From the NCBI GenBank assembly GCA_963727805.1, contig CAVSHF010000003.1:960001-1024000 (forward strand): 64,000 nucleotides of DNA. The letters are read 5' to 3'. Position numbers and translations under genes: made by a program. Positions 20,051 to 35,279 of the stretch are shown here, piece after piece. Origin of the DNA: an uncultured Nitrospiraceae bacterium (GTDB lineage: Bacteria > Nitrospirota > Thermodesulfovibrionia > Thermodesulfovibrionales > Dissulfurispiraceae). The notes below the pieces were generated by a model. It saw nothing but the letters and a program-made list of their open reading frames with translations. It searched no databases and was not told the origin of the DNA. How positions within the stretch are numbered: the first letter of the stretch is position 1; each line of letters begins with the position of its first letter.

Positions 20051-20476
20051 CTACTCTCCACTCCCATCTTTCAAGATTTGTTGAAGGTGCTTGGTCCTTT
20101 CACGGGTTAATTCAGCTTTCCGAAATAAGAAAGACATTGGATACATGCTACCCCAGCAGATTCTTACGTTGTCTTCAGGGCATGCAAATCTTGCTTCAAG
20201 ATCAGCATCACGAAATGCCAGCCAAGCTTTCTGGGCAAGCTGTAGTTTGCTAATAAATAACGGGTCATCAGCCTCTTTCTTGATGAGAGACTGATACGTT
20301 TGATTGAGCGCTTTGTCTGCCTTGGCCAAGTCATCACTAGCGCAGGCGTTTAGTTCTAATTGGCCCCCGCTATCGTTACATTTGATCTCATCGCCAGCCC
20401 ATAATGCGATTGGCACAAGCGCGATCAAGGCAAAGAGAACTGCTCGAATAATAATTCGAATCCCCCATTCTAACAA
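20051..20476 (-). CDS. LprI/DUF1311-family secreted protein
   Basis: LNACA...ADKALN..Y..L; AQKAWL.FRD. Confidence 0.85.
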   Translation of the reverse strand: MLEWGIRIIIRAVLFALIALVPIALWAGDEIKCNDSGGQLELNACASDDLAKADKALNQTYQSLIKKEADDPLFISKLQLAQKAWLAFRDADLEARFACPEDNVRICWGSMYPMSFLFRKAELTRERTKHLQQILKDGSGE

Positions 20477-20766
20477 TTACGATACCAACTTGGTCTTTTC
20501 TGCCAAAAGTATATCACACTTCAACACATAATAGAATATTGCTGTAACATATATTTCTTTAATATCATCCCATTAAAATTTGACAACTTGTGATAACACG
20601 AGATGCATTATTTTTGTTCCCTTGATGATCCGACTTTAATTATTCTATTATTGGAATGTTTTGTCGCTCAAAGAAAATATGCCGGGCAGATTATACTCAC
20701 CGAAGTCATTTCAAGGAAGTCTACAGCAGTGGATTGACGGCCTGAGAATCGCCACCTAATAGACGC

Positions 20767-21012
20767 CTATGCCTTTTTCTGTCGGTCCTCACCATGCGCC
20801 TTAGATCTGTCCGTTCGTATCAATCTGCGTACAAAAAAGACTACGCCCAGCGCAATAGCAATCCAGGATATTACCATGACTATTGTAATCCATGTCGGTA
20901 GGCTCGCACCCTGCTCGTCGATGTGGCCCGGACGATCTCCATGGGCATAGGCCGATGATGCAGCGCACAGAACCGCCACCGCTACGACGTTTACCAATTC
21001 ATACAATCTCAT
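20767..21012 (-). CDS. small membrane protein
   Basis: Signal peptide ending AYA-HGD, one TM, basic tail. Confidence 0.6.
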   Translation of the reverse strand: MRLYELVNVVAVAVLCAASSAYAHGDRPGHIDEQGASLPTWITIVMVISWIAIALGVVFFVRRLIRTDRSKAHGEDRQKKA

Positions 21013-21149
21013 GCGGTTGTTCCATTTTTATTTTCGATCAACGTTTTTATCTGCTTACACATGCCGTACATACAATGGAAAAAGCCGCGCATACCATTGC
21101 GGCATCCCCAAAAAGGATTTCAGAGCTTACAACATAGCCAACACTCTTA

Positions 21150-21551
21150 TTACTTACAATAGCTGCAACTGTCCTCGCAATATTTGCACCTGTATCCCGA
21201 TTTGACACAAACATTGAAACATTTGACGTCCTTATAGCGTTGACCCTGCCCCGGCTGCACCTTTTGACTGCCGCTATCACTTGTGCCACAGTTACAACTT
21301 GACTGACAGCATTTTTGAGTGTCATCTTGAACTCTGCAGCCCTTACAGCACTCCCTTTCAGAGGATGCTGACATAGCACCGGGAGGAAGAGTCACTAAAG
21401 CAATTAAAAAAATTATCAGTAGAACTAAGGGCCCAATTGGCAGGGTATCTTGCATGGTCGTGATTTTACGGTGGATCTTCTGTCCTTCTTTACAGTTTTC
21501 AGAAAAGTCAGATTCATCAGCTGACGAGGTGGTGAAGAGATAATTGTCCAT
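21150..21551 (-). CDS. Cys-rich exported protein
   Basis: RBS GGAGG; hydrophobic segment; 13 Cys in the C-terminal ~66 aa. Confidence 0.6.
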   Translation of the reverse strand: MDNYLFTTSSADESDFSENCKEGQKIHRKITTMQDTLPIGPLVLLIIFLIALVTLPPGAMSASSERECCKGCRVQDDTQKCCQSSCNCGTSDSGSQKVQPGQGQRYKDVKCFNVCVKSGYRCKYCEDSCSYCK

Positions 21552-21632
21552 GATGTCCTCCAGTAGTCGGATAAGACAATACCCGATATGAAGTATTAAC
21601 AGAACCTTCTATAATACTACTGCATAAGCGCA

Positions 21633-22907
21633 TTAATTCGCTATTGCAGGCCCGCTTAAGGTGCGAAGAAAGGCCTCAAGCTGGTCTAATTCCTTATCGC
21701 TCAATTCGCCGTGGCCAAGCTCATGACTATCCGATCCGCGGTAAAACTTGAGTACCTCTTTTAGTGTTGAGAATTGACCGGCGTGCATATAGGGAGCTCT
21801 TTGAGCAACATTTCTCAATGTAGGCGTCTTAAAGGCGCCTGAATATTTTGTTGTATTCGTATCCAGGTATCTCAGTTCCGCACAATCACCGGGGCCGGCA
21901 TCGCTGTATTTGCCCAGACAGTTAAACTCATCCGCGAGTACCTTCCTGATGCCGTCAGCCCTTCCATTGTCGCGAGGCATTTTGGTAGGCGTCGGTACGC
22001 CAGTATTATGAAAGTCGCTATTGGTAAAGAGAGGGCCAGTATGGCAATTTGTGCATTTGGCCTTGCCTATAAAGAGCCTGAGGCCGCCCGCTTCGTCAGG
22101 TGTAAACATCTTTGAAAGAGCCGTCGTATCGCTGTCGATAAGAGCCTTGGCATACCCATCAAATCGTGACGGTCCTGGAACAATAGTCCGGACATAAGCG
22201 GCAATTGCCTTGCCCATGTTGGCATAAATGCGATCAACCTCATCACGCTGGACCGGCGTCATCGATGCCCATGTCTTGAGTGAAACGATATCTTCCGTGG
22301 CAGGGCTCGCGACAGCATTTTTTATGTCGGGTATCTTACCGAAAATCGCCTCATATTCTGTCCGGTAATGCCTGGCGATCAGATAGGCGCATGCTGTCCT
22401 TGTAAATCCGTGCTCGACGTTGCTCTCAAGCGGACCCAGTGCCTGCGACCAGAGGCTGTCTTTTCTCCCGTCCCAGAAAAACCATGTATTATAGGCAACT
22501 CCCAACAGAGGCATCGATCTTCTTGTTGTGGATCCTATCCCATGCGCCAACGGAAGGTCATCGGTAAAGCTCATGTCGGGCCTATGGCAGGTGGCGCATG
22601 ATACTTTCAGGTTTCCGCTAAAACGCGAATCAAAGAAGAATCTTTTGCCGAGCGCTATGGCTGCAGGATTATCGGCAAAGGAATTAGAAGGATCTTTCGG
22701 TAGGGCTGGCAGAGATCCTATCCATAAAGAACGTATGACAGAGATCTCCTTTTGATCCCATGAATGAATGCCGTTTTCTGAGGCGCATGCCATCGGTGCG
22801 AGATGTAACGGTATCGCTAATACTACTATGAATAAAAGCGCTGACAGGTGATAATGTCTTTGTGCATTCTTAATGATTTTCATAGGGACATTCTCGTTAT
22901 GGCACAA
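21633..22907 (-). CDS. diheme cytochrome c peroxidase/MauG/MbnH-family protein
   Basis: LGKRFFFD.RFS; SCATCH; FWDGR; CTNCH; FKTPTLRNV...PYMHAG (start may be 22883). Confidence 0.9.
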   Translation of the reverse strand: MCHNENVPMKIIKNAQRHYHLSALLFIVVLAIPLHLAPMACASENGIHSWDQKEISVIRSLWIGSLPALPKDPSNSFADNPAAIALGKRFFFDSRFSGNLKVSCATCHRPDMSFTDDLPLAHGIGSTTRRSMPLLGVAYNTWFFWDGRKDSLWSQALGPLESNVEHGFTRTACAYLIARHYRTEYEAIFGKIPDIKNAVASPATEDIVSLKTWASMTPVQRDEVDRIYANMGKAIAAYVRTIVPGPSRFDGYAKALIDSDTTALSKMFTPDEAGGLRLFIGKAKCTNCHTGPLFTNSDFHNTGVPTPTKMPRDNGRADGIRKVLADEFNCLGKYSDAGPGDCAELRYLDTNTTKYSGAFKTPTLRNVAQRAPYMHAGQFSTLKEVLKFYRGSDSHELGHGELSDKELDQLEAFLRTLSGPAIAN

Positions 22908-23733
22908 TAAGGTTAAAGGTAATAATGTCTTCCATGCCCTCTGCCTTTATCTTAAATGTCATCACCCACCATCCAGGCATACTGAATTTCAGCCCTTGTA
23001 CGACATAATCTCCGGCAACTGCACCCTCAGCTACCTCTGGCATAGTTGGAAGGCCGTGCCCATGTTCAGGCATTTCACCACTAAGGACGACTTCCGCGTT
23101 CTTTACGGCGCGACCATCTGCCATCACGACTCTCAATTTCCAGCTGATTATCCTGCCGACCGGGATCGGCATGACATTGCTTGCATATGACGCTCTGAAC
23201 AGTTTTTTTACTGACTCGCGGGCTGCAGATGTGTCGACATCTGCAGGGGCTGAAGAATGCATCATTTTATGCTCATCCTGCGACATTGATGCCGATCTGC
23301 TAACGTCCGGGAAATCGAAGGTGACATTGTCCTCTGTATTGTTCTTCTGAATCTTCAGTCGAAGCTCCCAGCGCCCTTCCATTATTAGGATTATATTTTC
23401 GACGCTATATGTACCCCCGCCCCTCTCTTTGACCACTGGCTTCTCAAAAACACCATGACCCATCTCCGGCATCCAGGGGACGACCTTTATTTCCGCACCG
23501 GCCACATCCTTGTCGCTTTTGTCGTGGACGATTATGTCAAGAGTATTAACTCCCACTTTAAGGTCTTTATCTTTGATCACCATCTCGACAGAGTATACGC
23601 CATTGTCCGTCATCTTGAAGAGGCTCTGCTCATAGTGTTTCGTGTGTTGATCGGCTTCTGAATGACCTGTATGAGCGGCAAACACAATTAACGGGAAAAG
23701 CACAACAGCTATGGCTAATAAAACAGTTCTCAT
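22897..23733 (-). CDS. FixH/YtkA-like double-domain periplasmic protein
   Basis: Signal peptide; WMPEMGHG..MEGRW and MPEHGHG..MPGWW. Confidence 0.85.
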   Translation of the reverse strand: MRTVLLAIAVVLFPLIVFAAHTGHSEADQHTKHYEQSLFKMTDNGVYSVEMVIKDKDLKVGVNTLDIIVHDKSDKDVAGAEIKVVPWMPEMGHGVFEKPVVKERGGGTYSVENIILIMEGRWELRLKIQKNNTEDNVTFDFPDVSRSASMSQDEHKMMHSSAPADVDTSAARESVKKLFRASYASNVMPIPVGRIISWKLRVVMADGRAVKNAEVVLSGEMPEHGHGLPTMPEVAEGAVAGDYVVQGLKFSMPGWWVMTFKIKAEGMEDIITFNLIVP

Positions 23734-23812
23734 GGCAGGGACCTCATTCCAATAGATATAGGATGTTCTAAAAAAATATTCCTTGTCAGCAGCTGTACTA
23801 TGCTAATAAACA

Positions 23813-23844
23813 GTCAGGGCAGGAACATTAAGTCCTGCCCTGAC
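23813..23844. terminator. intergenic hairpin
   Basis: GTCAGGGCAGGA/TCCTGCCCTGAC inverted repeat. Confidence 0.7.
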
Positions 23845-23852
23845 GAATCAGA

Positions 23853-24602
23853 CTATTTAGAGCCGGCTGAAGGCATCTTGGAAAGTAAATCGATGACTTT
23901 CATGGCAGCTTCGCCATGCTGATGAGACATCGCCATCATTGGGTTGTCCATCGTCATGCCCTTTTCATGCATGTCCATCATCTCTTTGCCGCCCATCATG
24001 TCGGATACCATGGGTTTGGCATCCTTCATCATCTCTTTTCCGTGCTCGACTGTCATCTTGTCTACAGCACCTGCCATGCCCATCTCCCCAAGCATTACCA
24101 TATTAGCTCCTTCGGCAGCCATTTGCAAGGCATGATTGACCATCATATGCATATGGTGCATTGACATCATGCCAGGAGCGGACATGTCCTCCATAGACAT
24201 CTTTTCGAGTATGTCAGCGACTTTGAGCATAGATTCGCCAAGTTGATGTGTGTAGTCCATCATCGGGTCCTTGCCATGTTTCTTCATCATAGCTGTCATC
24301 TCCGGGCCATTTAGGGCACGAACGATCAATTCCTTGCCTTCTTTCATCATGTGGTGTCCGTGATGGAGCATCTTTTCATCGACTCCCGGTGCCATTTTCA
24401 TCTGCGCAAGCATCGCCATATTCGAACCCTCGGCTATCATCGATATGCCGTGATTCATCAGCATATGGAAGTGATGCATGTGCATAGAGGCATCATGGCC
24501 CTTGTGCTTCATCTCTTCAGCATTTGCAGAACCAAACATAGCAAAAGACAAGATAACTGCTAATACAATTATCCTGTTAAGTCTTTTCATCATACCTTTC
24601 AT
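23853..24602 (-). CDS. extremely Met/His-rich periplasmic protein with two internal repeats
   Basis: Signal peptide; MHH.HM..NH...M.AEG.NM.ML..M.MA..VD occurs twice; RBS AGGAGG. Confidence 0.8.
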   Translation of the reverse strand: MKGMMKRLNRIIVLAVILSFAMFGSANAEEMKHKGHDASMHMHHFHMLMNHGISMIAEGSNMAMLAQMKMAPGVDEKMLHHGHHMMKEGKELIVRALNGPEMTAMMKKHGKDPMMDYTHQLGESMLKVADILEKMSMEDMSAPGMMSMHHMHMMVNHALQMAAEGANMVMLGEMGMAGAVDKMTVEHGKEMMKDAKPMVSDMMGGKEMMDMHEKGMTMDNPMMAMSHQHGEAAMKVIDLLSKMPSAGSK

Positions 24603-24794
24603 AAATAATCCTCCTTTGTTGTCGGTCTAAACCGACTTTCGGTTATCTTAAAGATAACGTGTAGCCATATAAAATATAGCTATGATCGATCCGTCAAACA
24701 ACTTCACCGTAAGTTTGTGCAAATCGCCTGTCACCATTACGTCCGCAGTGGTGGAAGAAATCACTGGATTATGTTCATCCAGTGACATGTCTGC

Positions 24795-26129
24795 CTATCC
24801 ACTACTGACCGGGAAGGCAAAGGTGACATTGTCCTCTGCATTGTCCTTTTTAATCTTCAGCCTCATCTCCCAGCGTCCTTCCATTATAAGCACAACATTT
24901 TCTACACTATATGTACCGCCTCCCTTCTCTTTGACTACGGGTTTATCAAAGACCCCATGCCCCATCTCCGGCATCCAGGGGACAACATTCATTTCCGCGC
25001 CAGTTACCTCTTTCCCATTTTTGTCCTGGAGCACGACGTCAAAAGTATTAACTCCCACCTGAAGAGCTTGATCTTTGATCACAATCTTCACAGAATACAG
25101 ACCATTGGCCGTCATCTTTAACAGACTCTGCTCATTGACCTGTTCCTTACGTTGACTCATGCCACGATCGGTACTCGTTTCAGGATTTGAAAGCGTTCTT
25201 TGTTCGCGTTCCAGCAGCAGCATATGGACAGCATGACGTGCGGGGACTTCTTGTGTGAAAAGAGAGACACAGAAAAGTATCGCCAGTATCAGGAAAGCTT
25301 CGACTCTGCTCCGCTTGAGAAACTTTGTAACGTATGCAGCTTCGTCCTTTCCCTTCTGAGGAGGGGCGATGTATCTTGAAGTGAGATATGCAAAGATAAG
25401 CAACTTGATCGAAAGTAACCGTCCGTAGGTATTCGTCAGAAGTGCCCCGAAGGATCCGACATCTACCCAGGCGTTGTAAAGCCCCGTAAAGACGAGCACA
25501 GCAAAAACAGGACCGAAAAGGACGTAGAACCTGTCAGCTATGCCAGATACGATATGCTGCTGTTCGACGTTGTCCGCTATTTTAGATGCAGAAAACATAA
25601 TCGATATCGTCAGTAGTGTTCCTCCCCAGGAGATAGATGCCAGAAGATGGAACCAGTCTGATAATTCCTGCAGGCTAAAGTCTCCGTTGTCTGCACCGTG
25701 GCTTGTCGCACTGCGTGAAAAGGCAATGGCAGCGCAGGCTAAAAGCAATACAATAGCTATAATACGTGAATTCAGATGCCGATTCCCCAGCCACCAAACA
25801 CACCAGGCTAAGACGATACCAACCGCCCTCACGAGCCACATGCTTCCATAATGCGAACTGAACAGAACAGTTGGCAATACAGGGACTATTTCCGTGATGC
25901 CCAGACCTGCCATCACCATAGCTCGCTGCACAAGGAGGCCTAAGCTGCTGATGCTCAGTCCGACAAGGCAAAATAAGAGCAGCCTGCGGCAACCGTCAGA
26001 ACATTGGTTGGTTGGTGAGTCGACGGATACCGGGCGCATAGTCCAGAAAAGGCAAAGGATAGTGCCAACGAACAAGGATAGCGCCGAAAGATCGATGAAC
26101 GGCATCAAGCTATGCAGAAATATATCCAT
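24795..26129 (-). CDS. copD: CopD copper-uptake protein fused to a C-terminal YtkA domain
   Basis: SHYG..W..R; TSHGA; HLLA.ISWGG; TG.YN; YGRLL.IK; tail WMPEMGHG; RBS GAGG before MDIF. Confidence 0.85.
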   Translation of the reverse strand: MDIFLHSLMPFIDLSALSLFVGTILCLFWTMRPVSVDSPTNQCSDGCRRLLLFCLVGLSISSLGLLVQRAMVMAGLGITEIVPVLPTVLFSSHYGSMWLVRAVGIVLAWCVWWLGNRHLNSRIIAIVLLLACAAIAFSRSATSHGADNGDFSLQELSDWFHLLASISWGGTLLTISIMFSASKIADNVEQQHIVSGIADRFYVLFGPVFAVLVFTGLYNAWVDVGSFGALLTNTYGRLLSIKLLIFAYLTSRYIAPPQKGKDEAAYVTKFLKRSRVEAFLILAILFCVSLFTQEVPARHAVHMLLLEREQRTLSNPETSTDRGMSQRKEQVNEQSLLKMTANGLYSVKIVIKDQALQVGVNTFDVVLQDKNGKEVTGAEMNVVPWMPEMGHGVFDKPVVKEKGGGTYSVENVVLIMEGRWEMRLKIKKDNAEDNVTFAFPVSSG

Positions 26130-26139
26130 GTCATTGACC

Positions 26140-26514
26140 TCATTTGATCGTAAATCTATAATCCCCGGTAGTGCGGTGTCCGTCTCTTGCCACGACGTTC
26201 CAAATGACACGATAGGTTCCAGCCGGCAGCGGAGGCAAGCCGACTTCGAGCAGGACCGAATTGGAGGGGTTCACCCGGCTGTTGCCCTGGTCCACTTGTT
26301 TGCCACTCATGTCCTGGACTGTCATCTTGCTGAAGGCCGGCTCAATATCCCCATCGAACCATATATATGCGCCGACAGGCGGAGTCGAAATAGTCTCCCC
26401 GACCCTCGGAATTGAATGATCGGGGAAGGCATGCCCATGGGACATACTAGGTAATACAAGCAGTAACGCAAGATAAGAAAGCGCTACTGCCGTCCTGACA
26501 TTCATGATATGCAT
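26140..26514 (-). CDS. copC: CopC copper-binding protein
   Basis: Mature N-terminus HAFPDHS.P; G.Y.V.W.VV..DGH...G.Y.F. Confidence 0.92.
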   Translation of the reverse strand: MHIMNVRTAVALSYLALLLVLPSMSHGHAFPDHSIPRVGETISTPPVGAYIWFDGDIEPAFSKMTVQDMSGKQVDQGNSRVNPSNSVLLEVGLPPLPAGTYRVIWNVVARDGHRTTGDYRFTIK

Positions 26515-26520
26515 AAGAGT

Positions 26521-27528
26521 TTAGTGAAAAATCGGCCCGCCTATGCTCTTCGGGAACAGGTCATCAACAAATAAATGTATCAGACCAAGAACGCCGACAG
26601 TCTTCCCCGACCTTGAGTTGACAGGCAGTTCTGCAGCAATTCCGAACTCCATGAACTTCCCCGCCCACACCACACCCGGGTTGATAGTTCCAGTCGTCAG
26701 TCCCTTACTGTCCTGGCTCACGTTGGTCTGCATGGGAAATTCCACGACAAGGATCATGCGTTTGAAGGGATCCGGCAGGCCGATGTCTTTTACATGCTGT
26801 TGCAGGTACATGAGACTGTACTGAATTGTGAACCCCCAGTTAAAAGTCTTAGCATTGTAACTTATAGTCGTGTCTCCAGTATCCGGATCCGTACTGACAT
26901 TCTTGCTTCGTGTGGGGAACCCCATACCAATAGCTCCTGTAACTGCAAACGGTCTGATAAAACTAACGGAGTCTGGCAGATCGCCAAGACCCTTTCCGAA
27001 AAAGAGCCCAGGTGTTACGGTCGAAAATGAGTCCGAAATCTGATGTGCCCCTGTGCCTCCAAGGTCGACGTCAGTACCGATTGACATAATCAGTTCATGG
27101 GGAGCATTTGTCAAAAACTGCCATTTCGCACCCACACCGAGGTTATCCCAGCCATGCGCCGAGGTGCCATCATCGAACTTCTGGTGTATGTATGCTTCAT
27201 GAAATTCAAACCCGAAGTTCGGGATCAGGCGTTTGGAAACGTCGATGTTTATGTCAGTTTCCTTCGATGCCGGGTCTCCAGATTGTCTATTGTGGTGTAT
27301 AAGGATCGAAAACTCATCTGAAATAAAGGGGTCGTCCACTGCGAATGTCGTGGGGAAAAACCTGTTGCCCGCGATACCGTGTGCCAAAGCCATGTCCGGC
27401 ACAAGAAGTACTAATGACAAGGCAACCCCAAGAGTGCTCAACAGAGATGCTGTCAGTATCGAACCTCCCGACAACGACCAACTTATCGTCCACTTTTTTT
27501 TCGCGTTTCTTTTAATAGATTTTATCAC
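26521..27528 (-). CDS. putative outer-membrane beta-barrel associated with copCD
   Basis: Signal peptide ALA-HGIAGNRFFPTT..DDP; amphipathic strands; GTG start after GGAGG. Confidence 0.65.
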   Translation of the reverse strand: MIKSIKRNAKKKWTISWSLSGGSILTASLLSTLGVALSLVLLVPDMALAHGIAGNRFFPTTFAVDDPFISDEFSILIHHNRQSGDPASKETDINIDVSKRLIPNFGFEFHEAYIHQKFDDGTSAHGWDNLGVGAKWQFLTNAPHELIMSIGTDVDLGGTGAHQISDSFSTVTPGLFFGKGLGDLPDSVSFIRPFAVTGAIGMGFPTRSKNVSTDPDTGDTTISYNAKTFNWGFTIQYSLMYLQQHVKDIGLPDPFKRMILVVEFPMQTNVSQDSKGLTTGTINPGVVWAGKFMEFGIAAELPVNSRSGKTVGVLGLIHLFVDDLFPKSIGGPIFH

Positions 27529-27686
27529 TTCTAAAACCTCCATATTTTTATGTTCAACATCCCTAAAGTAAGGCCGTATGGTGCCTGCTTCCTTCCACTG
27601 TTTGTCAAAAGCAAGAGAAATATCCAAGTGGTGACCTCTGCCTTGCACATACCAAATCTGGATATTTCAGACAGACAGTTTCGAAT

Positions 27687-28019
27687 CTAGCTTGCATACT
27701 CTGGGGGAGGATAATCTTGAAAGACTATCAATAAAGCGCTAGGTGTGAAACTCGATGCAGTATAACCCCCGACATAATGCATTGAAGCAGATAGGTATGC
27801 ACTTTCGTGGACAACGGGCGTGTCAATGCTCTTCTGAATCCCCTCTGTCGAAGCGTGGCAGACCTCTAGTGTAGCAATGCATGGCACGCTGGAGTTTGTA
27901 GACATGCATATATTTACTTTTGGCATTATTGATAAGACCAGACAGATTACACTTATTACCGGAATAAGTTTCGCGAAGTTTGCTATATCCAAAAAACCTT
28001 GCGATGATTTTATTTGCAT
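27687..28019 (-). CDS. DUF2946-like leader protein (TM, LEVCH, C-terminal YPPP)
   Basis: Paralog of 29958-30260; first ORF upstream of the cop operon. Confidence 0.6.
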   Translation of the reverse strand: MQIKSSQGFLDIANFAKLIPVISVICLVLSIMPKVNICMSTNSSVPCIATLEVCHASTEGIQKSIDTPVVHESAYLSASMHYVGGYTASSFTPSALLIVFQDYPPPEYAS

Positions 28020-28290
28020 GTTACCAGAATATCATGTCCTCAAAAAAAATCAAGGATGTCGGTGCATTTGTCACCGGGTTTGATGCTAAAACATGATAGA
28101 TTCTTTCCTTATTCCTCTCAGCATGCACTTTGCCGCAAGGTGTTATAGGCCATTTTTTTGTGGGGGGTCTTTCGACCCCTCCAAATCGGCTTCTATCAAT
28201 GCGTGGTGGAATTCTAAAAAAGCTCGATGAAAGAACAGATTGCCTTCTTGCGCCTGTCTCAGCACCGCCGAAGCCGTTGACAGCCCTGAG

Positions 28291-29790
28291 CTAAAACATT
28301 ACTTGAAAGCTGGCATTGAGAAGCCATTTAGTTTTCAACTGAATGCCGTTCAGGTCTTGATAGAGTGGAATACCTCCTTCAACTCCGATGCTGAAGGGAC
28401 CCTTTTGATAACTCACACCGATCAGTCCATCGAGTCGCTGGCCGCCATAGTTGTTGGGATCGGCATCTGGCATTGGCGCCCCTGTCATGGGATTCAGTAT
28501 CTCCTGGATCTGGGAATCCTGGCCCTTGATTCGCCCGGTATCGTTATAGGCAAGACGGAACGAGGGGGTAACGGGGTCTAAGGCACGCTGAATCCAACCG
28601 GTCACCTTGAAGTTGTCCCCGTAGCTCCAGCCCTCACCATTTTTTGCAGTATGCCAGGTGTACTGTGCTTGAGCGCCCCAGTTCCATTTAGCGTCGTCGC
28701 TGAGACCGTTGTAGGTAAGCGTGGGCTTGAGATCGTATGTGCCTGAACCAAGTTGCATATCATAAGGGGCGCGCAATTCCATGCCCATTACGTCTACTGT
28801 CTGCTTGATGCTGCCGGTCGGGAGGCTGAGACCGAGGCTGCCGACAAGATAGTTGTTGATCTTATACATACCTCTCAGCTCGGTGTCACCAAAACCGCTA
28901 GTGGACATAGGAGCGCTGGAGAAGGTGCCCATCATCGGGCCCATGTCCATTATCATTTTCATCTTGTTCGTCACATAACTCGTCATTGCCATCACGGTCA
29001 CACGGTCGGTGATCCCGTACATCGCCATCACCATTTGCATATCCATCGTCATGCTGGTTGGGATCATCATATAGTTATAAGGCCGGTTCCTCATAAAACC
29101 GACACTGCTATTCCCAGCGTTATTTGTCCCAGCGCGCAACCCCATCATGTCCATATGCATGAATGAGTAGTTAACCATCCACATGCCCGCTGGGTGGGTA
29201 TGGTATATGTGATCGCTGAAGGCTGGATTGAACAGCATTTGGGCGCCCGGGCCCATATCCATATGGCGCATATCATGAGCCATGTGCCCATGATGGTCGT
29301 GGTTCATCATCCCCGCCTTCGCAACATCGTCTTCAGCGGCCTTCAGCGCCTCATCAAAGGTGCTCACTTTGCCGCCGTATTCCTTCACGAAGGCCTGCGC
29401 TTCTTTCTCCTCTGCAAAAGCCCATTCCGCTAAATAAGTCATGACCCCCGGTTTACTGCCGCCAATGACCCAGGTTGCGGTCTTTACATCTATCAGCTTC
29501 GTTGTTGCATAATCGGCAACCATAATCGACTTGACCTGCTTGTTTTTGTTTTCGTTCATCTCCTCGGCTGCACAGTGGAGGCTGCAGAACCCCACCGTGG
29601 TCCCGTCGGCATAGACAATAAGCATCCGGCTCCTGACATAAACGTTCCGGTCCATCCCGCATACGTTGCAGGTCTTGGGATTCTCTATGGTGGCCGCCTC
29701 GTTGCCGGCAATTGATGTGCGCACGCAGAATAACTGAACAAGAATAAACATGACCGCAAAAGATGTTTTAAACTTTTTTAGTGGTTTCAT
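28291..29790 (-). CDS. NosL-domain / His-Met linker / beta-barrel transporter fusion
   Basis: CNVCGM..FCSLHC..V.DY...A.WV.G...GVM (NosL); HDHHGHMAHDMRHM; HTHPAG.WM; GFGD; MQLGSGTYD; terminal Phe. Confidence 0.75.
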   Translation of the reverse strand: MKPLKKFKTSFAVMFILVQLFCVRTSIAGNEAATIENPKTCNVCGMDRNVYVRSRMLIVYADGTTVGFCSLHCAAEEMNENKNKQVKSIMVADYATTKLIDVKTATWVIGGSKPGVMTYLAEWAFAEEKEAQAFVKEYGGKVSTFDEALKAAEDDVAKAGMMNHDHHGHMAHDMRHMDMGPGAQMLFNPAFSDHIYHTHPAGMWMVNYSFMHMDMMGLRAGTNNAGNSSVGFMRNRPYNYMMIPTSMTMDMQMVMAMYGITDRVTVMAMTSYVTNKMKMIMDMGPMMGTFSSAPMSTSGFGDTELRGMYKINNYLVGSLGLSLPTGSIKQTVDVMGMELRAPYDMQLGSGTYDLKPTLTYNGLSDDAKWNWGAQAQYTWHTAKNGEGWSYGDNFKVTGWIQRALDPVTPSFRLAYNDTGRIKGQDSQIQEILNPMTGAPMPDADPNNYGGQRLDGLIGVSYQKGPFSIGVEGGIPLYQDLNGIQLKTKWLLNASFQVMF

Positions 29791-29957
29791 GCTTCCCCCT
29801 TTTGTATCAGGCTAAAAGCCTTTATGATTCGTTGCTCTTCTTATTAAATTCGTTAGATTTCAACAAACTATCACTTGCAGTAGAACTACCGATTGACACA
29901 TCTCAACCCTGCGCCGCGCATATGTCACCTGGGCATTTCAGTCGAACTGTTTCGAAG

Positions 29958-30260
29958 TTAACTTGTTGATTCTGGGGGAGGGTATTCTTGAAAGACTATC
30001 AGTACAAGGCTAGGCGTTGAACTCAATGTAGTATGAGTTCCAGTAGAGTTCCATGGACCAAACAGCTCAGAATCGCCAATAACTGAGGAGGTGTCAATAA
30101 TTCTCTGAATCCCTGATGTCGGATGGCAGACTTCAAGCTTACCGATGTATCGTTCCGCTGGACTTATATGAATGTTGACGAGTCCAGTCGGCATTAGGGA
30201 AACTATGAGCACGATCAGGATTATTCCCGAAAGCAGTTTCACAGCATTTGCAATGTTCAA
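29958..30260 (-). CDS. DUF2946-like leader protein (paralog; TTG start or 5' frameshift)
   Basis: TM, LEVCH, IVFQEYPPPESTS. Confidence 0.55.
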   Translation of the reverse strand: MNIANAVKLLSGIILIVLIVSLMPTGLVNIHISPAERYIGKLEVCHPTSGIQRIIDTSSVIGDSELFGPWNSTGTHTTLSSTPSLVLIVFQEYPPPESTS

Positions 30261-30478
30261 AGGAACTCAGATATTTTCATTTGGATGACGCTAGCATATC
30301 ACATCCACGGAGAATATCAAAAATATGCCGCAACCGGGATTGACATGAAGGCAAGGGTTAGTCTAACGAATAAGTATTTTTTAAAGGAGAAATGTTAGTA
30401 CATGAATATTCTGTTCATCTTCGGATTTCCCGCATATATAAATCTTTTTTATGGGCCGTGATTAAATTCGTTAGTACC

Positions 30479-30973
30479 TCAGTCCGACTTTTGGAATTCC
30501 AAGATGGGAATATGATATTTGCCATCTTGGAATTTCCCGGGAATTCTGATCGGGTAGCAGCCCCCAATTCCACTCTTTACTTCTGACACGCTATATGTCG
30601 TACCGCATTCCTTACAAGTAAAATGACCGCTACTAAAGGTGAAGCCAACCTTGGATTTACAGCTCACACATTTATCAAGAAAAGAAAGGACTTCGTTGTC
30701 GATTTTTATGACAAAGAAATTTATGTTCTCGTTCCCGGAATCATAAGTAAAGAATTGGGGAACATCGGGCTTCAGGCTTAGAACATCGATGTTCACCTCT
30801 TCGCCTGATACCGGCGCTTTCGAATAAATAGCATGCTTAGAGCAGGCAGCAAGAAGCATAAGGCATAGCAGTAAAAAATAGAGTCCCTTCTTAGCAAATG
30901 TCCTATTGGTTAATACTTGCTTTTTAAACGTGTGCATCTTAGAGAATCTTTTGAGCCTCATGTTAGTTTGCAT
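30479..30973 (-). CDS. DUF2318-like Fe-S-containing lipoprotein
   Basis: LAAC lipobox; D.C..C; C..CG; GGCYPI. Confidence 0.75.
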   Translation of the reverse strand: MQTNMRLKRFSKMHTFKKQVLTNRTFAKKGLYFLLLCLMLLAACSKHAIYSKAPVSGEEVNIDVLSLKPDVPQFFTYDSGNENINFFVIKIDNEVLSFLDKCVSCKSKVGFTFSSGHFTCKECGTTYSVSEVKSGIGGCYPIRIPGKFQDGKYHIPILEFQKSD

Positions 30974-31023
30974 AACCTCAAATGCAGCAGTTTCGGCATA
31001 TGTCTTTATATCTGCCCCATTGC

Positions 31024-31168
31024 CTAGTTCTTTTCATTATATCTTTGCTTCGTCTTAAGTAGAAGTTCCGCGGGTAGCCGGACCTCCTGATAGCAATGTA
31101 GGCAAGGGAGATCATTTCTCGGTAATATACCACTGTATAAAAAAATCATGAGTGTTATCGACTGACAT
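31024..31168 (-). pseudogene. truncated, frameshifted radical SAM enzyme N-terminus
   Basis: RBS GAGG; MSVDNTHDFFIQWYITEK, then TG-AT (TGCAAT minus 2 nt), then shifted frame LPCLHCYQE, giving QW.ITEKCNLPCLHCY. Confidence 0.75.
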
Positions 31169-31215
31169 GGTAATTCCTCATTTGAGAACATGGTGAGCTC
31201 TATTCGTTAATAAAG

Positions 31216-31258
31216 AAAGCAGATACGTGTGACTGAATCATTAGTACGTATCTGCTTT
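31216..31258 (-). terminator. intrinsic terminator between the peptide and the radical SAM remnant
   Basis: AAAGCAGATACGT/ACGTATCTGCTTT followed by CTTTATT. Confidence 0.75.
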
Positions 31259-31270
31259 CATACTGCTTTG

Positions 31271-31287
31271 GCTGCCAACCTGGCAGC
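31271..31287 (-). promoter_or_regulatory. SECIS-like hairpin
   Basis: GCTGCCA-GGT-TGGCAGC; the loop lies 27 and 18 nt after two in-frame UGA codons. Confidence 0.6.
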
Positions 31288-31289
31288 GT

Positions 31290-31409
31290 TTAACTCTTTC
31301 AACTGCTTCACTTGCGGCATATCTTGCCCGGACTAGCAGTCGTTTTCTTGAGCCTGTCCCAGAGGGCTGCCTCTTGCGTGAGAACCTTAGTGCTCAATTC
31401 TTTCTTCAT
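31290..31409 (-). CDS. 39-aa putative selenopeptide / RiPP precursor MKKELSTKVLTQEAALWDRLKKTTASPGKICRKUSSUKS
   Basis: SD GGAGGTGA 7 nt before ATG; in-frame TGA at 31308-31310 and 31299-31301; TAA at 31290-31292. Confidence 0.65.
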
Positions 31410-31426
31410 CCCGTCTTCACCTCCTC

Positions 31427-31752
31427 TCCGAATAATCGGATTTAGCATGCCAAATAACAGCCCAGTCAATCCTTGGGCAGTGAAATTATTAGAGCCGTAC
31501 AACTCGCTTCGGGCTGATAATCACTGCTTTAGGCACTTTCATCACCATTGCCGGATTAAAGTTATCCCTGTGCTTGTCATACAGCTCTTTATTTCTGCAA
31601 TGCATTCTGGGGGACCATAGCTCTTTTTACATTTGGGTTCTTCCACGGATGCTTCAGGCTTCCCTCTCGCTGCTAAGGGCTTGCTCACCACATCCGACAC
31701 TCAGTCCCTTTCTCGTCATTGTTCCTATGGCTAACCCAAGAATGACATTGCA
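31427..31752 (-). ncRNA. long structured 5' leader or ncRNA with four hairpin domains
   Basis: TGCAATG/CATTGCA, CATTCT/AGAATG, GCCATAG/CTATGGT, CGGATGT/GCATCCG; GAGCTGTATGAC/GTTGTACGGCTC; GCCCA/TGGGC; TCCGA/TCGGA; G-U pairs work only on the minus strand. Confidence 0.6.
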
Positions 31753-32098
31753 AGTCCTTCTTGATTGAAGCATAGCCCTAACACAAGAGAAATTAAATCA
31801 GACAAAAGCTAATTTTGTAGTCAGTCTTGTCCTACAAAGGAAATCGGGCAACAAATACAAAACTGTCTGCCTTCTTCAATGCAATCATCTTTTTTGACCT
31901 TGGAAGTCCTCTTTGGTCTGTCTCACTTCAGCATGATGATGAATATTGAAGCTTTTGATCGGAAATGCACGTCTAACATCTTCAAGTCCTTCGAAAGGAG
32001 CATATATTGCATATTTCATTCATTGTCATTGGTCTCCCTCATTTTGTTGCATCATTCGGGGAGAAGACGGCGCCCTGTCCCCGCATGATGAACGACAA

Positions 32099-32920
32099 TT
32101 AAGATATCTTCGCTGCCTTGGCGATCGGTGGGGTCGGGATATTCGAGCCGTGACGTTCGATGCAGTTGCTCTGAGCAGTGATACCGTAGTTTGCAGAAGA
32201 TACAGTACCATTCGTTTCGTACTTGCCGTCCTTCCAGGCATTCAAAAGTTTGACAACATGATAGACCGTGCTTGCGGTGACGCGGGCACAACGGTCCTTT
32301 CGTTCGGGGCTCTTAAGATCTTTGTCTGCTGCCTTCATCCATTTGCAGACCGATATGTGGCAAAAAGGAGAATCGCTGACTGTTTTAGGAAGGACAGTTT
32401 TGATCCTGGGATTGCTGGGCGTGAAGATCGGCATCTGCGCATTGGCATACCAATCAAGCATTTCGCCTCCCATCAGCGCGCCATCTTCAGACCCGGCTAT
32501 CCGAGGCTTATTATCATATTGGCCACTATATTGGCTCCCATAGGCGCGCCGCAGATGGTCCCCCATCCCATGATTCCACCTTCGAGAAGGAGCAAGAGTC
32601 TATATGAAAAGACTTGTATGGCTCTCCAACTTTCTCTCTCAGCTGAGTGAAGACGCTGCTGATCACGGCCGCGCCGCAAAGAGTCGACACCATTCATTAT
32701 GGGCAAGTGCAGCGGTTTGCGCAGGGTCAAGCTTCACATACGGCCATGGCCATTTTTCTGTCGGCCCTTCCCTGGCTTCCGCGTTAGAAAGTAAGTTCCC
32801 GAGCTGATCGGCAGTCGAGCCGATAGCTAATAATCCTGCACCTGCAATGAACTTTCTTCTTGAAACCGTGTCGTTTCCGGATACCTTTTTTTTAATCCTC
32901 CTTTGTATGAAATTATTCAA
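32099..32920 (-). pseudogene. split-Soret cytochrome c / C_GCAxxG_C_C-family pseudogene with three frameshifts
   Basis: Tat SRRKFI and WPWPYVKLDP / CGAAVISSVF..GEPY / GG..GWGTICGA / SPFCHISV.KW..ERKDRCAR are separated by frameshifts; terminal CxxCH reads CIERH. Confidence 0.8.
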
Positions 32921-32983
32921 ATAATGCGAATCTCCTGATCCGGCGTGGATGACTATAGACGTTCATCCTTGTCTTTATCCGAC

Positions 32984-34072
32984 CTAGTCCTTCATTGGCT
33001 TGATGAACATGAAGTAGACCATCGTCCAGTTGCCGAGGATTATAAATATGGTCGCCACGATGCTTGATAGGGCGAGGGATGAAACGCCGGTCAACGCATG
33101 ACCTACGGTGCATCCCCCTGCAGTCGCTGCTCCAAAGCCCATAACGAGGCTGCCAAGGAAAACCCGTATGATTTCATTCGCCGGAGGGGCCTGTAATTTG
33201 AATTCGCCGAGTCCTTTGGCGCTAATGTAAGCGCCTAGTGGAATACCCAAAATATATAAAGCACTCCAGGTGCCCTTGAAAATCCCCCAAAAATTAAACA
33301 TAGGATCGAATTTGGACATACTGTCTCCCATCGTCACGGCTAGGAATGCCTCTGCCGTCGGTCCCGCCGCCGAAAGGCCTCGTGTCTGCCCTCCCCAGTA
33401 ATTTGATGCCCAGAGCGCAAAGATAAGGATCACGCCGATCATGGCGCCGGTGAGGGACCATGAATAGCCTTTCCTCGGTCCCTTGGCAAAGGGCTTCCCT
33501 TTCAGGACAATCGGAATGATGATGAGAGCGATAACGCCGATGACTGCCCATTTCATCGATAACCCGCCAAAGATATCCCACAACGCAGGGTTGAAGACGG
33601 CCTCATCGCCGCTGCCAATCGAAACTTTGTAGCTCTTCAGGAATTCCATGACTGGTTTGAGGGGACCATGATAGGTAGCGATAAGAGAAGAGGCAAAACC
33701 GAGAGTGGCCACGAGAGCGGATGTATAGCCTTCTCCCACACGGTATATTATGCCGCTACCGCAACCGCCGGCCATCACAATGCCAAGTCCGAAGACATAG
33801 CCGCCGACCATATTGGCGATAACATTGAAGGATTGCCTCCTGAGACCGAAATCACCCATAAATCCGAAGTCTTCAAGCAGATTCGCGCCAATGATTGCGA
33901 TCAAAAGTGCCAGCAGATATGACCGGAATAAGGTAAAGTCTTCGAGAAATATGATGTCTCTAAAAGCCGAATTCATGCAGTAACGACCTCTCTGAAGAAC
34001 AAAACCGAAAAGAATACCGACAAAGAGCCCACTTGCCAATACCATAAAACTTGCCTGCTGGACTTCCTCCAT
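32984..34072 (-). CDS. yeeE: YeeE/YedE (TsuA-like) sulfur-compound transporter
   Basis: FGFVLQRGRYC; G.VMAGGCGSG; GFGA..AGGCTVG; multi-TM. Confidence 0.9.
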   Translation of the reverse strand: MEEVQQASFMVLASGLFVGILFGFVLQRGRYCMNSAFRDIIFLEDFTLFRSYLLALLIAIIGANLLEDFGFMGDFGLRRQSFNVIANMVGGYVFGLGIVMAGGCGSGIIYRVGEGYTSALVATLGFASSLIATYHGPLKPVMEFLKSYKVSIGSGDEAVFNPALWDIFGGLSMKWAVIGVIALIIIPIVLKGKPFAKGPRKGYSWSLTGAMIGVILIFALWASNYWGGQTRGLSAAGPTAEAFLAVTMGDSMSKFDPMFNFWGIFKGTWSALYILGIPLGAYISAKGLGEFKLQAPPANEIIRVFLGSLVMGFGAATAGGCTVGHALTGVSSLALSSIVATIFIILGNWTMVYFMFIKPMKD

Positions 34073-34187
34073 AGAGCTTCTCCTTTTTCTTCAATTAATC
34101 ATTTGTGTGGCAATGCCACGACTACCGAATTATCTCCTTTCGTCCATATGACGAACGACCAAGCCGACTTTTTCAAAAAAGGAACAA

Positions 34188-34317
34188 TGGAGGGGAGCAG
34201 TGGGAATCGAACCCACCACGGCACCTTATGAGTGCGACACACTGCTTTGACGCCCGTATGTCTTTAGCCGTGACACTGGTTTTGCAGACCAGGTGAGGCG
34301 CCAACCCCGTGCCCCCC
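34188..34317 (-). tRNA. non-canonical tRNA-Cys(GCA)-like RNA with tRNA-Sec-like fold and branched ~59 nt variable arm (copy 2)
   Basis: Acceptor GGGGGGCA/TGCTCCCC; D-arm GGGGT-TGGC-GCCTC; anticodon arm CTGGT-CT-GCA-AA-ACCAG; T-arm GTGGG-TTCGATT-CCCAC; T-CCA. Confidence 0.85.
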
Positions 34318-34494
34318 GGGAACAGCTCACAAAAGAGACGGCTCCCGCCTTTTACGCTATCCGTACAACGGAAACAGCAGGTTATTTGACTTGATATGGG
34401 TTCCGAACTGGAACGGCGAAACTGAAGGGTATTCATATCTTCATTCGGTTCGCCTTTTTTGATACGTCGTGGGAAGTTGTCTCGGAGAGTGTCC
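34318..34494 (-). ncRNA. conserved structured leader fused 5' of the tRNA-like domain (copy 2)
   Basis: GGACA/TGTTC, GAGAC/GTCTC, TTCCC/GGGAG, GGCGAA/TTCGCC, TGAAG/CTTCA, TCCGT/ACGGA; possible GATATG/CATATC pseudoknot. Confidence 0.65.
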
Positions 34495-35279
34495 TATATT
34501 GAAGGCCTATGCCCATGTCTATGATAGCTTGGTGGATCATTTGCAGATAATTTAGTATTGCTTCAATATATATGTCAAATTGTTTTTGTGGATGGCTTAA
34601 ACGGGAGTAATAGATTTGTCGCTACAATCCAAAAACTGGCGGACGCCGAATGGCGGAGAATGCGGGCGTAACATTAAAGTTACCGGTAACCAACGGTGTC
34701 CCTGAAATATCCGATGCGTTGACTTTTTGGTAACATCAAATAAATGTTCCAGCGATGTTCCTATAATCGACAATGCACTCGACACGGTGAAGACGCTTTG
34801 TTTCAATAAGTAATCGAGAGCGGTACTGTTCGTCAATCTTTACCGAGTTCGTCTCCCTGTCATGTTTGTGAGCGTATAGATAAAAGATTCTCTCAGAGGA
34901 AAAGAACGATAGTTGAGATAATATTTTGAAAGTAATTTGCTATAATTAAACGAATAATAAGAGGTTTATGCTCCACTTTAATCTGCTAGCGTGATATCTT
35001 TCATAGCGCCAGAAGAAGACAGGGGTAGCTGTAAATATGTAACGCCTCGAAGCAGGCTAAGTTCAGTCATCTGATAAAAGGGTGCAATTGATCTCTTTTG
35101 GAAAAAACATCTTTGGCCGGAAGTCGTCTCCAACCAAGACATCTACGCTAACTTCGGGCAACTCCCTCCAAAAGTATTTATCTCGCATCACAAAAGATCG
35201 ATCTGTTGCTAACGGTGATATAATCAAGTTTCAGACCTCAAGCAAGACAACAGCGATCGTAAACAGGTGGAGATAGACC

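Follow-up and report, generated by a model that had tools for sequence, protein, structure and literature searches.

Among described systems, the closest counterpart of the genes reported here is the peptide SbtA with its maturase SbtM, the only pair of a selenocysteine (Sec)-containing peptide and a radical S-adenosylmethionine (rSAM) maturase described so far (PMC9204691, PMC13188914). Table 1 of a 2026 review (PMC13188914) lists SbtA as a "selenobacteriocin" (TIGR04081) with the motif SGUG, and the maturase PapB is reported to accept Sec in place of Cys (PMC10739248). We analyzed a peptide gene on the minus strand of a 64,000-nucleotide stretch of DNA, hereafter the window (G000:C3:960001-1024000), from the genome of an uncultured Nitrospiraceae bacterium (G000). 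Like SbtA/SbtM (thio(seleno)oxazole; Geobacter and Desulfobacteria), the family to which this gene belongs combines a short peptide with at least two apparently UGA-encoded Sec residues, a selenocysteine insertion sequence (SECIS)-like hairpin and an adjoining rSAM/SPASM enzyme. We consider it fairly likely that the window gene is a member of this two-Sec family, a substrate of the family's enzyme, and an orphan precursor that is matured only in trans.

Comparison with SbtA and SbtM revealed clear differences. None of 69 family peptides matched TIGR04081 at E ≤ 10, the predicted Sec residues are located in the motif C-x-K-U-x-x-U-K-S at the very C-terminus rather than in a G-U-G motif, and the taxa concerned are mainly Nitrospirota. 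The family's enzyme scored 133.8 against a cut-off of 350 on the SbtM model TIGR04082, aligning to positions 199-515 of 516 with the N-terminal ~200 residues missing.

The window gene (31409..31290, minus strand, as are all parts of the locus) encodes MKK…GKICRK-UGA-SS-UGA-KS-UAA, that is, 39 codons plus UAA. A Shine-Dalgarno (SD) site GGAGGTGA (31424..31417) is located 7 nt upstream of the start codon ATG 31409, from which 33 sense codons (MKKELSTKVLTQEAALWDRLKKTTASPGKICRK) lead to the first UGA. The product consists of a leader, MKKELSTKVLTQEAALWDRLKKTTASPGKI, and the core C-R-K-U-S-S-U-K-S, in which the Cys codon TGC (31319..31317) stands three codons ahead of the first in-frame TGA (31310..31308). 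This putative Sec codon is followed by AGC AGT, and the second in-frame TGA (31301..31299), likewise a putative Sec codon, by AAG AGT and the stop codon TAA (31292..31290). A preliminary description of this DNA had proposed the SD site, the start codon, a 39-residue peptide, CxxUxxU spacing and the UAA stop, all of which are present, and the SECIS-like hairpin, terminator and rSAM remnant that it placed downstream were found at 31287..31271, 31259..31209 and 31168..31051, respectively.

The SECIS-like hairpin (GCTGCC-AGGTT-GGCAGC) lies in the 3' untranslated region (UTR) and has a 6-bp stem, GCUGCC/GGCAGC, and the loop AGGUU; it starts 11 nt past the second UGA and 20 nt past the first. Between the peptide and enzyme genes there is a long terminator- or attenuator-like hairpin, GAAAGCAGAUACGU…ACGUAUCUGCUUUC plus UUUAUU, of which the hairpin itself spans 31259..31215 (minimum free energy -35.8 kcal/mol, z = -3.4; 2 of 200 shuffles were as stable) and whose stem core GCAGATAYG is also present in relatives from other genera. 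A simple scan of 30900-31700 called no terminator; the long hairpin was missed because its loop is too long, and folding reveals it. The maturase remnant comprises a start codon and ~40 codons, is frameshifted within CxxxCxxC and has lost the remainder by deletion: ATG 31168 opens MSVDNTHDFFIQWYITEK and runs into a stop, and the next frame goes on with …DLPCLHCYQE….

A degenerate DNA pattern of the core, run on a public genome collection, gave 87 matches. Sixty-nine were family members: each had a leader, a correctly spaced start codon and the hairpin, and a GGAGG-type SD site was scored for 68 of them; the other 18 were without leader, SD site, hairpin or rSAM gene. The deposited labels of the family records were mostly of Nitrospirota type (Thermodesulfovibrionales, Dissulfurispiraceae, Sulfobium), with 14 records labelled delta-/Proteobacteria, Syntrophus or Syntrophorhabdus and one labelled Chloroflexota. 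Across the family, the leader has the layout …KEAAxW..LKK…PGK, followed by C-x-K-U-x-x-U-K-S at the C-terminus, and all of the family-wide invariant residues (M1, E13, W17, C, K, U, U, K) are kept in the window copy. A DNA search of 41 close genomes detected the gene in 10 relatives besides G000.

We then searched a phylum sample of 401 genomes with a profile of the 69 peptides in which Cys was written at both UGA positions; some of the public records are the same genomes as those in our own genome sets, and the sets are therefore not independent. Full-length matches (E ≤ 3.1e-8) were found in 73 genomes, and three further weak matches are probably noise. Both TGAs were present in 73 of 73 full-length matches, despite the Cys in the search model; this count includes one match that was scored as having a single TGA, which had been cut at position 37 and showed the second TGA in its aligned sequence. 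In metagenomes, the same DNA pattern matched at least 119 places, at least 86 of which were family members. A protein collection yielded 152 matches at E ≤ 1, most of the 120 listed being 34 residues long and thus peptides cut at the first UGA. None of those listed had a name beyond "hypothetical protein", and one 39-residue entry (P0196) with W at both Sec positions was most likely translated with TGA read as W. Because gene callers end the reading frame at the first UGA, annotation misses the family.

No NCBIfam 20.0 model matched any of the 69 peptides at E ≤ 0.01, and no Pfam match was found for the peptide. Membership in the UXX-star, UxxU metal-binding or FmdB-type families (NF041114, NF041211, NF041115, TIGR02605) was considered and rejected, with none of the 69 peptides matching at E ≤ 10. 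The C-terminal "star" selenoproteins (UXX-star NF041114, NF041211; KCU-star NF033934) resemble the family in having Sec three residues from the C-terminus (PMC13188914), but again 0 of 69 peptides matched them, and the review table (PMC13188914) describes no adjoining rSAM/SPASM enzyme for these families. The motif C-x-K-U-x-x-U-K-S is absent from the 119 selenoprotein families of that table, and we found no description of such a peptide in the literature. Haft and Tolstoy 2025 may mention the family, but models from that work would belong to NCBIfam 20.0, where nothing matched.

To characterize the coding signal, we used 86 distinct sequences that had been selected for both TGAs and the leader, with duplicates removed; some of them had been retrieved with a pattern in which certain bases were fixed, and the 31 rows obtained by BLAST or hidden Markov model (HMM) searches alone gave the same picture. 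The Cys codon was TGC in 76 sequences and TGT in 10. The homologues keep both TGAs and conserved codons downstream of them, a point that the preliminary description had raised as a check. Between the two UGAs, K, S or N is followed by S or G, and within each residue only the third position changes (AAG/AAA, AGT/AGC, GGT/GGC). Lys (AAG/AAA) follows the second UGA in 85 of 86 sequences, and the last codon specifies Ser in 84 (AGC 55, AGT 21, TCT 3, TCC 3, TCG 1, TCA 1). The terminal stop directly follows the last Ser in 85 sequences (TGA 40, TAA 35, TAG 10), and the remaining one has an extra Ser and then TAG. The terminal stop thus alternates among TGA, TAA and TAG, whereas the two inner UGAs are constant in the 73 genomes. 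The 40 members ending in TGA have a third UGA, mostly only 1-3 nt ahead of the hairpin, presumably too close to it for recoding. Comparison of the window copy with five genus-level homologues gave pN/pS (ratio of nonsynonymous to synonymous polymorphism) values of 0.15-0.26, and values among those homologues were 0.12-0.19, noisy estimates from 37 codons.

These patterns bear on the reading in which the UGAs are ordinary stops, the product has 33 residues, and the conserved DNA downstream is an RNA element regulating the enzyme gene. Gene callers do end at the first UGA, most of the listed protein matches have 34 residues, and the conserved stretch holds two hairpins. Against this, both AGY and TCN codons are used for the last Ser, Lys and Gly codons differ at the third position only, a freely alternating stop occurs exactly two codons past the second UGA (three in a single case) while the inner UGAs stay constant, and the family is confined to selB-bearing lineages. 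We regard this reading as very unlikely and infer that both UGAs are decoded as Sec; a real, translated family of two-Sec peptides is very likely.

The hairpin was supported by covariation. Over the 86 sequences, 99.6% of the cells of the 6-bp helix were paired, with 57 compensatory cells at three of the six pairs; none of 500 shuffles reached this, and slid controls had 14-61% of cells paired. RNAalifold independently predicted the same hairpin on the family alignment. Most members have a GGUC(N) loop, and a "delta" subgroup has UUGGAUA. The SECIS of Escherichia coli fdhF is a hairpin with a GGUC-type apical loop that starts 11 nt after the UGA. The family hairpin shares the loop type and the 11-nt spacing, as in a Syntrophus member (GGUUGCAGGUCUGCAAC), but differs from fdhF in lying wholly behind the stop codon, in apparently serving two UGAs and in matching nothing in Rfam (no SECIS family in window 30900-34500 at E ≤ 1). 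In one subgroup (L055, L063, L084, L099, L137), the main hairpin is preceded by 7-9 additional nt containing a small GAGCU…AGCUC hairpin.

The genes for Sec synthesis and insertion, which the preliminary description had named as a check, are all present in G000: tRNA-Sec (69 bits), selB (354), selA (608) and two copies of selD, all above the curated cut-offs. Both selD genes (C3:482960-483883 and C5:157506-158420) contain one in-frame TGA, which suggests Sec-containing selenophosphate synthetases. In the phylum sample, selB (E ≤ 1e-65) was found in 192 of 401 genomes, namely in 67 of the 73 peptide carriers compared with 125 of the 328 other genomes. The six carriers without selB are metagenome-assembled genomes (MAGs) that are 63-96% complete, and no taxonomic family without selB in this sample yielded a strong peptide match.

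The window also contains two homologous tRNA-Sec-like elements (34192-34317 and 46-162, both minus strand; 81% identical), which scored 46.1 and 44.7 bits on RF01852, just below the cut-off of 47, and were not called by ARAGORN. Both have the anticodon loop xUGCAAA (GCA, Cys) and an insertion of 32-41 nt in the variable arm, and one is located ~120 nt upstream of a YedE/TsuA-like transporter gene (32984-34072, minus strand). Such an element was found in 14 of 41 related genomes including G000, in some as split matches spanning ~85-100 nt. selC* tRNA-Cys with GCA or UCA anticodons has been described in Thermodesulfovibrio and Nitrospirae (PMC5389517), and the elements fit this description. Both the two elements and the occurrence of selC* in this lineage would favour a reading in which the UGAs are translated as cysteine by a tRNA-Sec-like suppressor (selC* tRNA-Cys). 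However, both window elements carry GCA rather than the opal-reading UCA, G000 has a canonical tRNA-Sec together with the complete Sec machinery, and TGY would be expected to replace TGA somewhere in the family, which was seen neither in the 401 genomes nor among the all-Cys pattern matches in metagenomes. Decoding as cysteine is therefore extremely unlikely.

Coupling of the peptide to an rSAM/SPASM enzyme was examined in the 63 family loci for which 1 kb or more of sequence was available downstream. An rSAM/SPASM gene was located directly downstream on the same strand in 56 loci, one of which (L056) shows only the last 72 residues, and in none of the other seven. The enzyme gene usually begins 120-300 nt past the Cys codon, and the enzymes are 51-74% identical. 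No such gene stood beside any of the 18 chance pattern matches. In the phylum sample, the enzyme (E ≤ 1e-70) was detected in 74 of 401 genomes, with both genes in 72 and the enzyme alone in two; the peptide lacked the enzyme in one of 73 genomes, an 88% complete MAG. In 64 genomes the two genes adjoin each other, in one they are separated by 1.4 kb, and in seven they are located on different contigs. The new selenopeptide family with an rSAM/SPASM maturase that the preliminary description had proposed is thus supported, given the absence of NCBIfam and Pfam matches to the peptide; an intact adjacent rSAM gene, on which it had also laid weight, is the rule in the family, and the window itself holds only a stump.

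G000 has an intact pair at another locus. BLAST of the genome revealed a second peptide gene at C5:609462-609678, encoding MKKELSKAALAKEAVLWDRLKKTSPGKACRK-U-SS-U-KS-stop and followed by an intact rSAM/SPASM gene of 348 residues (cassette G000:C5:608385-609659). The C5 enzyme has the Pfam domains Radical_SAM (75.6 bits), SPASM (41.3 bits) and Fer4_12, and CxxxCxxC (C19/C23/C26) together with C253, C271, C309, C312, C318, C321 and C344 is invariant in 45 enzyme sequences. In addition to SbtM, all other NCBIfam scores were below cut-off: NirJ2 176.3/500, AhbD 168.1/500, ACGX 157/400 and GeoRSP 149/400. Identity with AhbD (TIGR04545) or NirJ2 (TIGR04055) was rejected on these scores. The nearest solved sequences are SkfB (61 bits), PqqE (59 bits) and anSME. 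The AlphaFold model of the enzyme had a predicted local distance difference test score (pLDDT) of 84.5 and a predicted template modelling score (pTM) of 0.86, and its closest folds were SkfB, SuiB, anSME, PqqE, ChlB and CteB, all of which act on peptides. A total of 2,579 enzyme homologues were found at E ≤ 1e-40, and their only names were "radical SAM protein" and, as a JGI label, "AdoMet-dependent heme synthase".

Among the maturases of RiPPs (peptides that are made ribosomally and then modified post-translationally), the pairs SkfB/SkfA, CteB/SCIFF and PapB/PapA are alike in that SPASM/twitch enzymes bind a Cys-rich core, and SkfB was also recovered by Foldseek (E 2.7e-16). The family enzyme differs from the sactipeptide and ranthipeptide maturases in that their cut-offs were unmet (StsB 100/625, PapB 67.5/340), no RiPP recognition element (RRE) domain is present and the substrate would be Sec-bearing. 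PqqA/PqqE and MftA/MftC resemble the system in another way: a very short conserved precursor is processed at its C-terminus by an rSAM/SPASM enzyme, intracellularly and with no exporter. Here too the scores were low (PqqE 79.5/381, MftC 126/265), and the conserved neighbourhood of the family contains no PqqD or MftB chaperone or peptidase gene.

To evaluate binding, we modelled the enzyme alignment together with a 31-residue peptide translated with code 11 and hence cut at the first UGA. The complex reached an ipSAE of 0.82 compared with 0.02 for the best control, at least 88% of contacts were shared between the runs, and the pLDDT of the partner was at least 80. Of 157 solved complexes, 116 reach the mark applied to such scores, as do 2 of 215 mismatched pairs; this calibration is only rough here, because we supplied alignments of our own. 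In the model, peptide residues E13 and W17 are placed on the invariant enzyme residues W55, Y59, R287, E288 and W290, and the C-terminal part of the peptide is placed at 229-231, 250-254, 271-273 and 321-323, near the SPASM cysteines C253, C271 and C321. As a prediction, the model thus supports binding of the peptide by the enzyme.

A different role was weighed, in which the product is an unmodified small selenoprotein whose CxxU/UxxU tail has a redox or metal function and which serves the enzyme as a partner (a carrier of electrons, selenium or metal) rather than as its substrate. The core is nearly invariant across phyla, more like an active site than a diversifying natural product, and CxxU and UxxU are redox or metal motifs of known selenoproteins (PMC13188914). 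The variable neighbours of the family are partly of redox type: YceI at 15 loci, a flavin disulfide reductase with a rubredoxin-reductase C-terminus at 11, a DUF255 thioredoxin at nine and DJ-1/PfpI at four, besides a PEMT/ICMT-like methyltransferase at 10 and other rSAM genes. No protease or exporter stands beside the pair. However, the enzyme's nearest sequences and folds are peptide-modifying maturases, and the complex model threads the peptide C-terminus to the auxiliary-cluster cysteines as would be expected of a substrate. A leader-plus-core precursor and a strong hairpin ahead of the maturase gene are typical of RiPP operons, and both the layout and the strong intergenic hairpin found here are as in such precursor-maturase pairs. 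An unmodified selenoprotein is accordingly unlikely, and the peptide is likely to be a substrate of the rSAM enzyme.

Whether the window copy itself is still in use was assessed from the remaining copies in G000 and in G003, a genome of the same genus. Leader DNA of the window and C5 copies is ~77% identical, and the two differ at a single base in the stretch that begins with the Cys codon and includes the hairpin. Transposases flank the C5 cassette (IS4/IS701-like directly upstream, IS4/5-family ~2 kb downstream; G000:C5:602000-614000), which hints that the peptide-enzyme pair moves as a unit. The window remnant matched the C5 enzyme by tblastn over residues 1-18 (78%) and 10-40 (48%) in two frames, and nothing further was found. 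A third copy (G000:C3:1337112-1337189, plus strand; type CHK-U-KG-U-KS) has an intact core and hairpin, but a TAG and a frameshift interrupt its leader, and it has no enzyme gene beside it. G000 encodes a single enzyme of the peptide-linked type, the next best match being 29% identical. In G003, the pair is split over loci on G003:C1 and G003:C2. At one of them the enzyme is intact and 73% identical to that of C5, but the peptide gene has P28H, TAA in place of the second UGA and an SD site that is weakened; this copy is visibly decaying and is the sole exception to the constancy of the UGAs. An intact peptide gene is present at another locus of G003 with no enzyme there. Homology between the window and the G003 sister locus is limited to 31050-31436, ending on both sides of the cassette.

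Several of these findings count against a functional window copy. Its maturase is down to 40 frameshifted codons, so that the copy could work only in trans; the G003 sister copy has acquired a TAA at the second UGA with the weakened SD site and P28H; and the third G000 copy is broken. No promoter-like site was found in the scan of 30900-31700, and the RNA contigs of one run on 30900-31900 cover only 31645-31778 and not the peptide gene, a result that speaks neither for nor against transcription; DNA runs X1 and X2, of three on the same interval, do cover the gene. These observations suit a reading in which the family is real but the window copy is a dead relic, neither transcribed nor matured, whose 120 bases have not yet decayed. 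Opposed to it, the invariant residues, SD site, both UGAs, hairpin and terminator are all intact in the window copy, and its pN/pS range lies near that of intact copies, with the same caveat of 37 noisy codons. The seven of 73 genomes with their only peptide gene on a different contig from the enzyme, and the split pair of G003, show that trans arrangements persist. We give the relic reading slightly less than an even chance, and continued use of the window copy stands at even chances.

According to the favoured interpretation of an orphan precursor served in trans, SelB would decode both UGAs as Sec by means of one hairpin just behind the stop codon, and the conserved helical leader would dock on the dedicated 348-residue rSAM/SPASM enzyme. 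The window precursor would be matured, if at all, by the single intact C5 enzyme. Our best guess is that the Cys/Sec cluster is held at an open site of SPASM auxiliary cluster I, since seven rather than eight Cys are conserved; such a set of seven presumably leaves a site open for a substrate thiolate or selenolate, as in CteB. Hydrogen-atom abstraction may then lead to an intramolecular seleno- or thioether or to an oxidised Sec like that of SbtM/anSME, again as a best guess. A selenoether cross-link, an SbtM-like oxidised Sec or a cofactor-like fragment may all be candidate products. A selenium compound with redox or metal activity inside the cell would be a more likely product than an antibiotic for export, since neither an exporter nor a protease or immunity gene is conserved beside the pair; the near-invariant core and the redox-type neighbours point the same way. 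A more specific proposal is conceivable but rather doubtful: a selenium cofactor or redox mediator, derived from the peptide and analogous to mycofactocin or pyrroloquinoline quinone (PQQ), would be made by the pair and used inside anaerobic sulfur-cycle bacteria of several phyla, with one 3'-UTR SECIS decoding both closely spaced UGAs and with spare precursors served in trans by a single enzyme.

The following points weigh against this interpretation. A single hairpin has to serve both UGAs, which are spaced 9 nt apart, the first at a distance of 20 nt from it, and Rfam recognised no SECIS in it. Homologues with Cys in place of Sec are the usual, although not obligatory, hallmark of selenoproteins. 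The alternation of UGA and Cys codons suggested as a check in the preliminary description was seen at neither position: no Cys version was found among the 401 genomes with a model that itself carried Cys, and an all-Cys core pattern in metagenomes matched 338 stretches, none of them related. Given that no Cys version occurs, sulfur is apparently unable to replace selenium in this family. The best family scores of the enzyme belong to the haem enzymes NirJ2 and AhbD, far under their cut-offs. The complex model was built with the peptide cut at the first UGA, and its high score may partly reflect likeness, because peptide-rSAM complexes have already been solved. Atypically for a RiPP system, the enzyme has no RRE/PqqD domain, and no protease or exporter recurs near the family loci or around the C5 cassette.

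If the favoured interpretation is true, the family represents a second Sec-peptide/rSAM-maturase family that is unrelated to SbtA/SbtM and far more widespread, occurring under Desulfobacterota-type labels too. It points to unknown radical chemistry on Sec and provides a natural test case of one SECIS behind a stop codon serving two nearby UGAs. In G000, the intact pair together with the orphan precursor and the decayed copy forms a natural series that could be used to ask about maturation in trans.

The surroundings of the window gene were also inspected. A link to the adjoining copper cluster (window 20051-30973; CopD, YtkA, NosL) was rejected because no copper gene recurs near the 63 loci and the C5 cassette sits between transposases. 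Between the peptide and transporter genes there is a 1.5-kb stretch without a recognisable gene (31410-32984), whose longest open reading frames (31946-32650, plus strand; 32099-32566, minus strand) had no Pfam match. Just upstream of the peptide gene, a repeat element (31584-31837) has paralogues at G000:C3:2325302-2325557 (80%) and C3:108874-109010 (73%), and a weak 6S-like match lies at 31636-31708 on the minus strand (29.8 bits; cut-off 46.4). Part of this repeat (31645-31778) was found in wetland metatranscriptome contigs, and ~31641-31696 was present at high depth in a peat metagenome.

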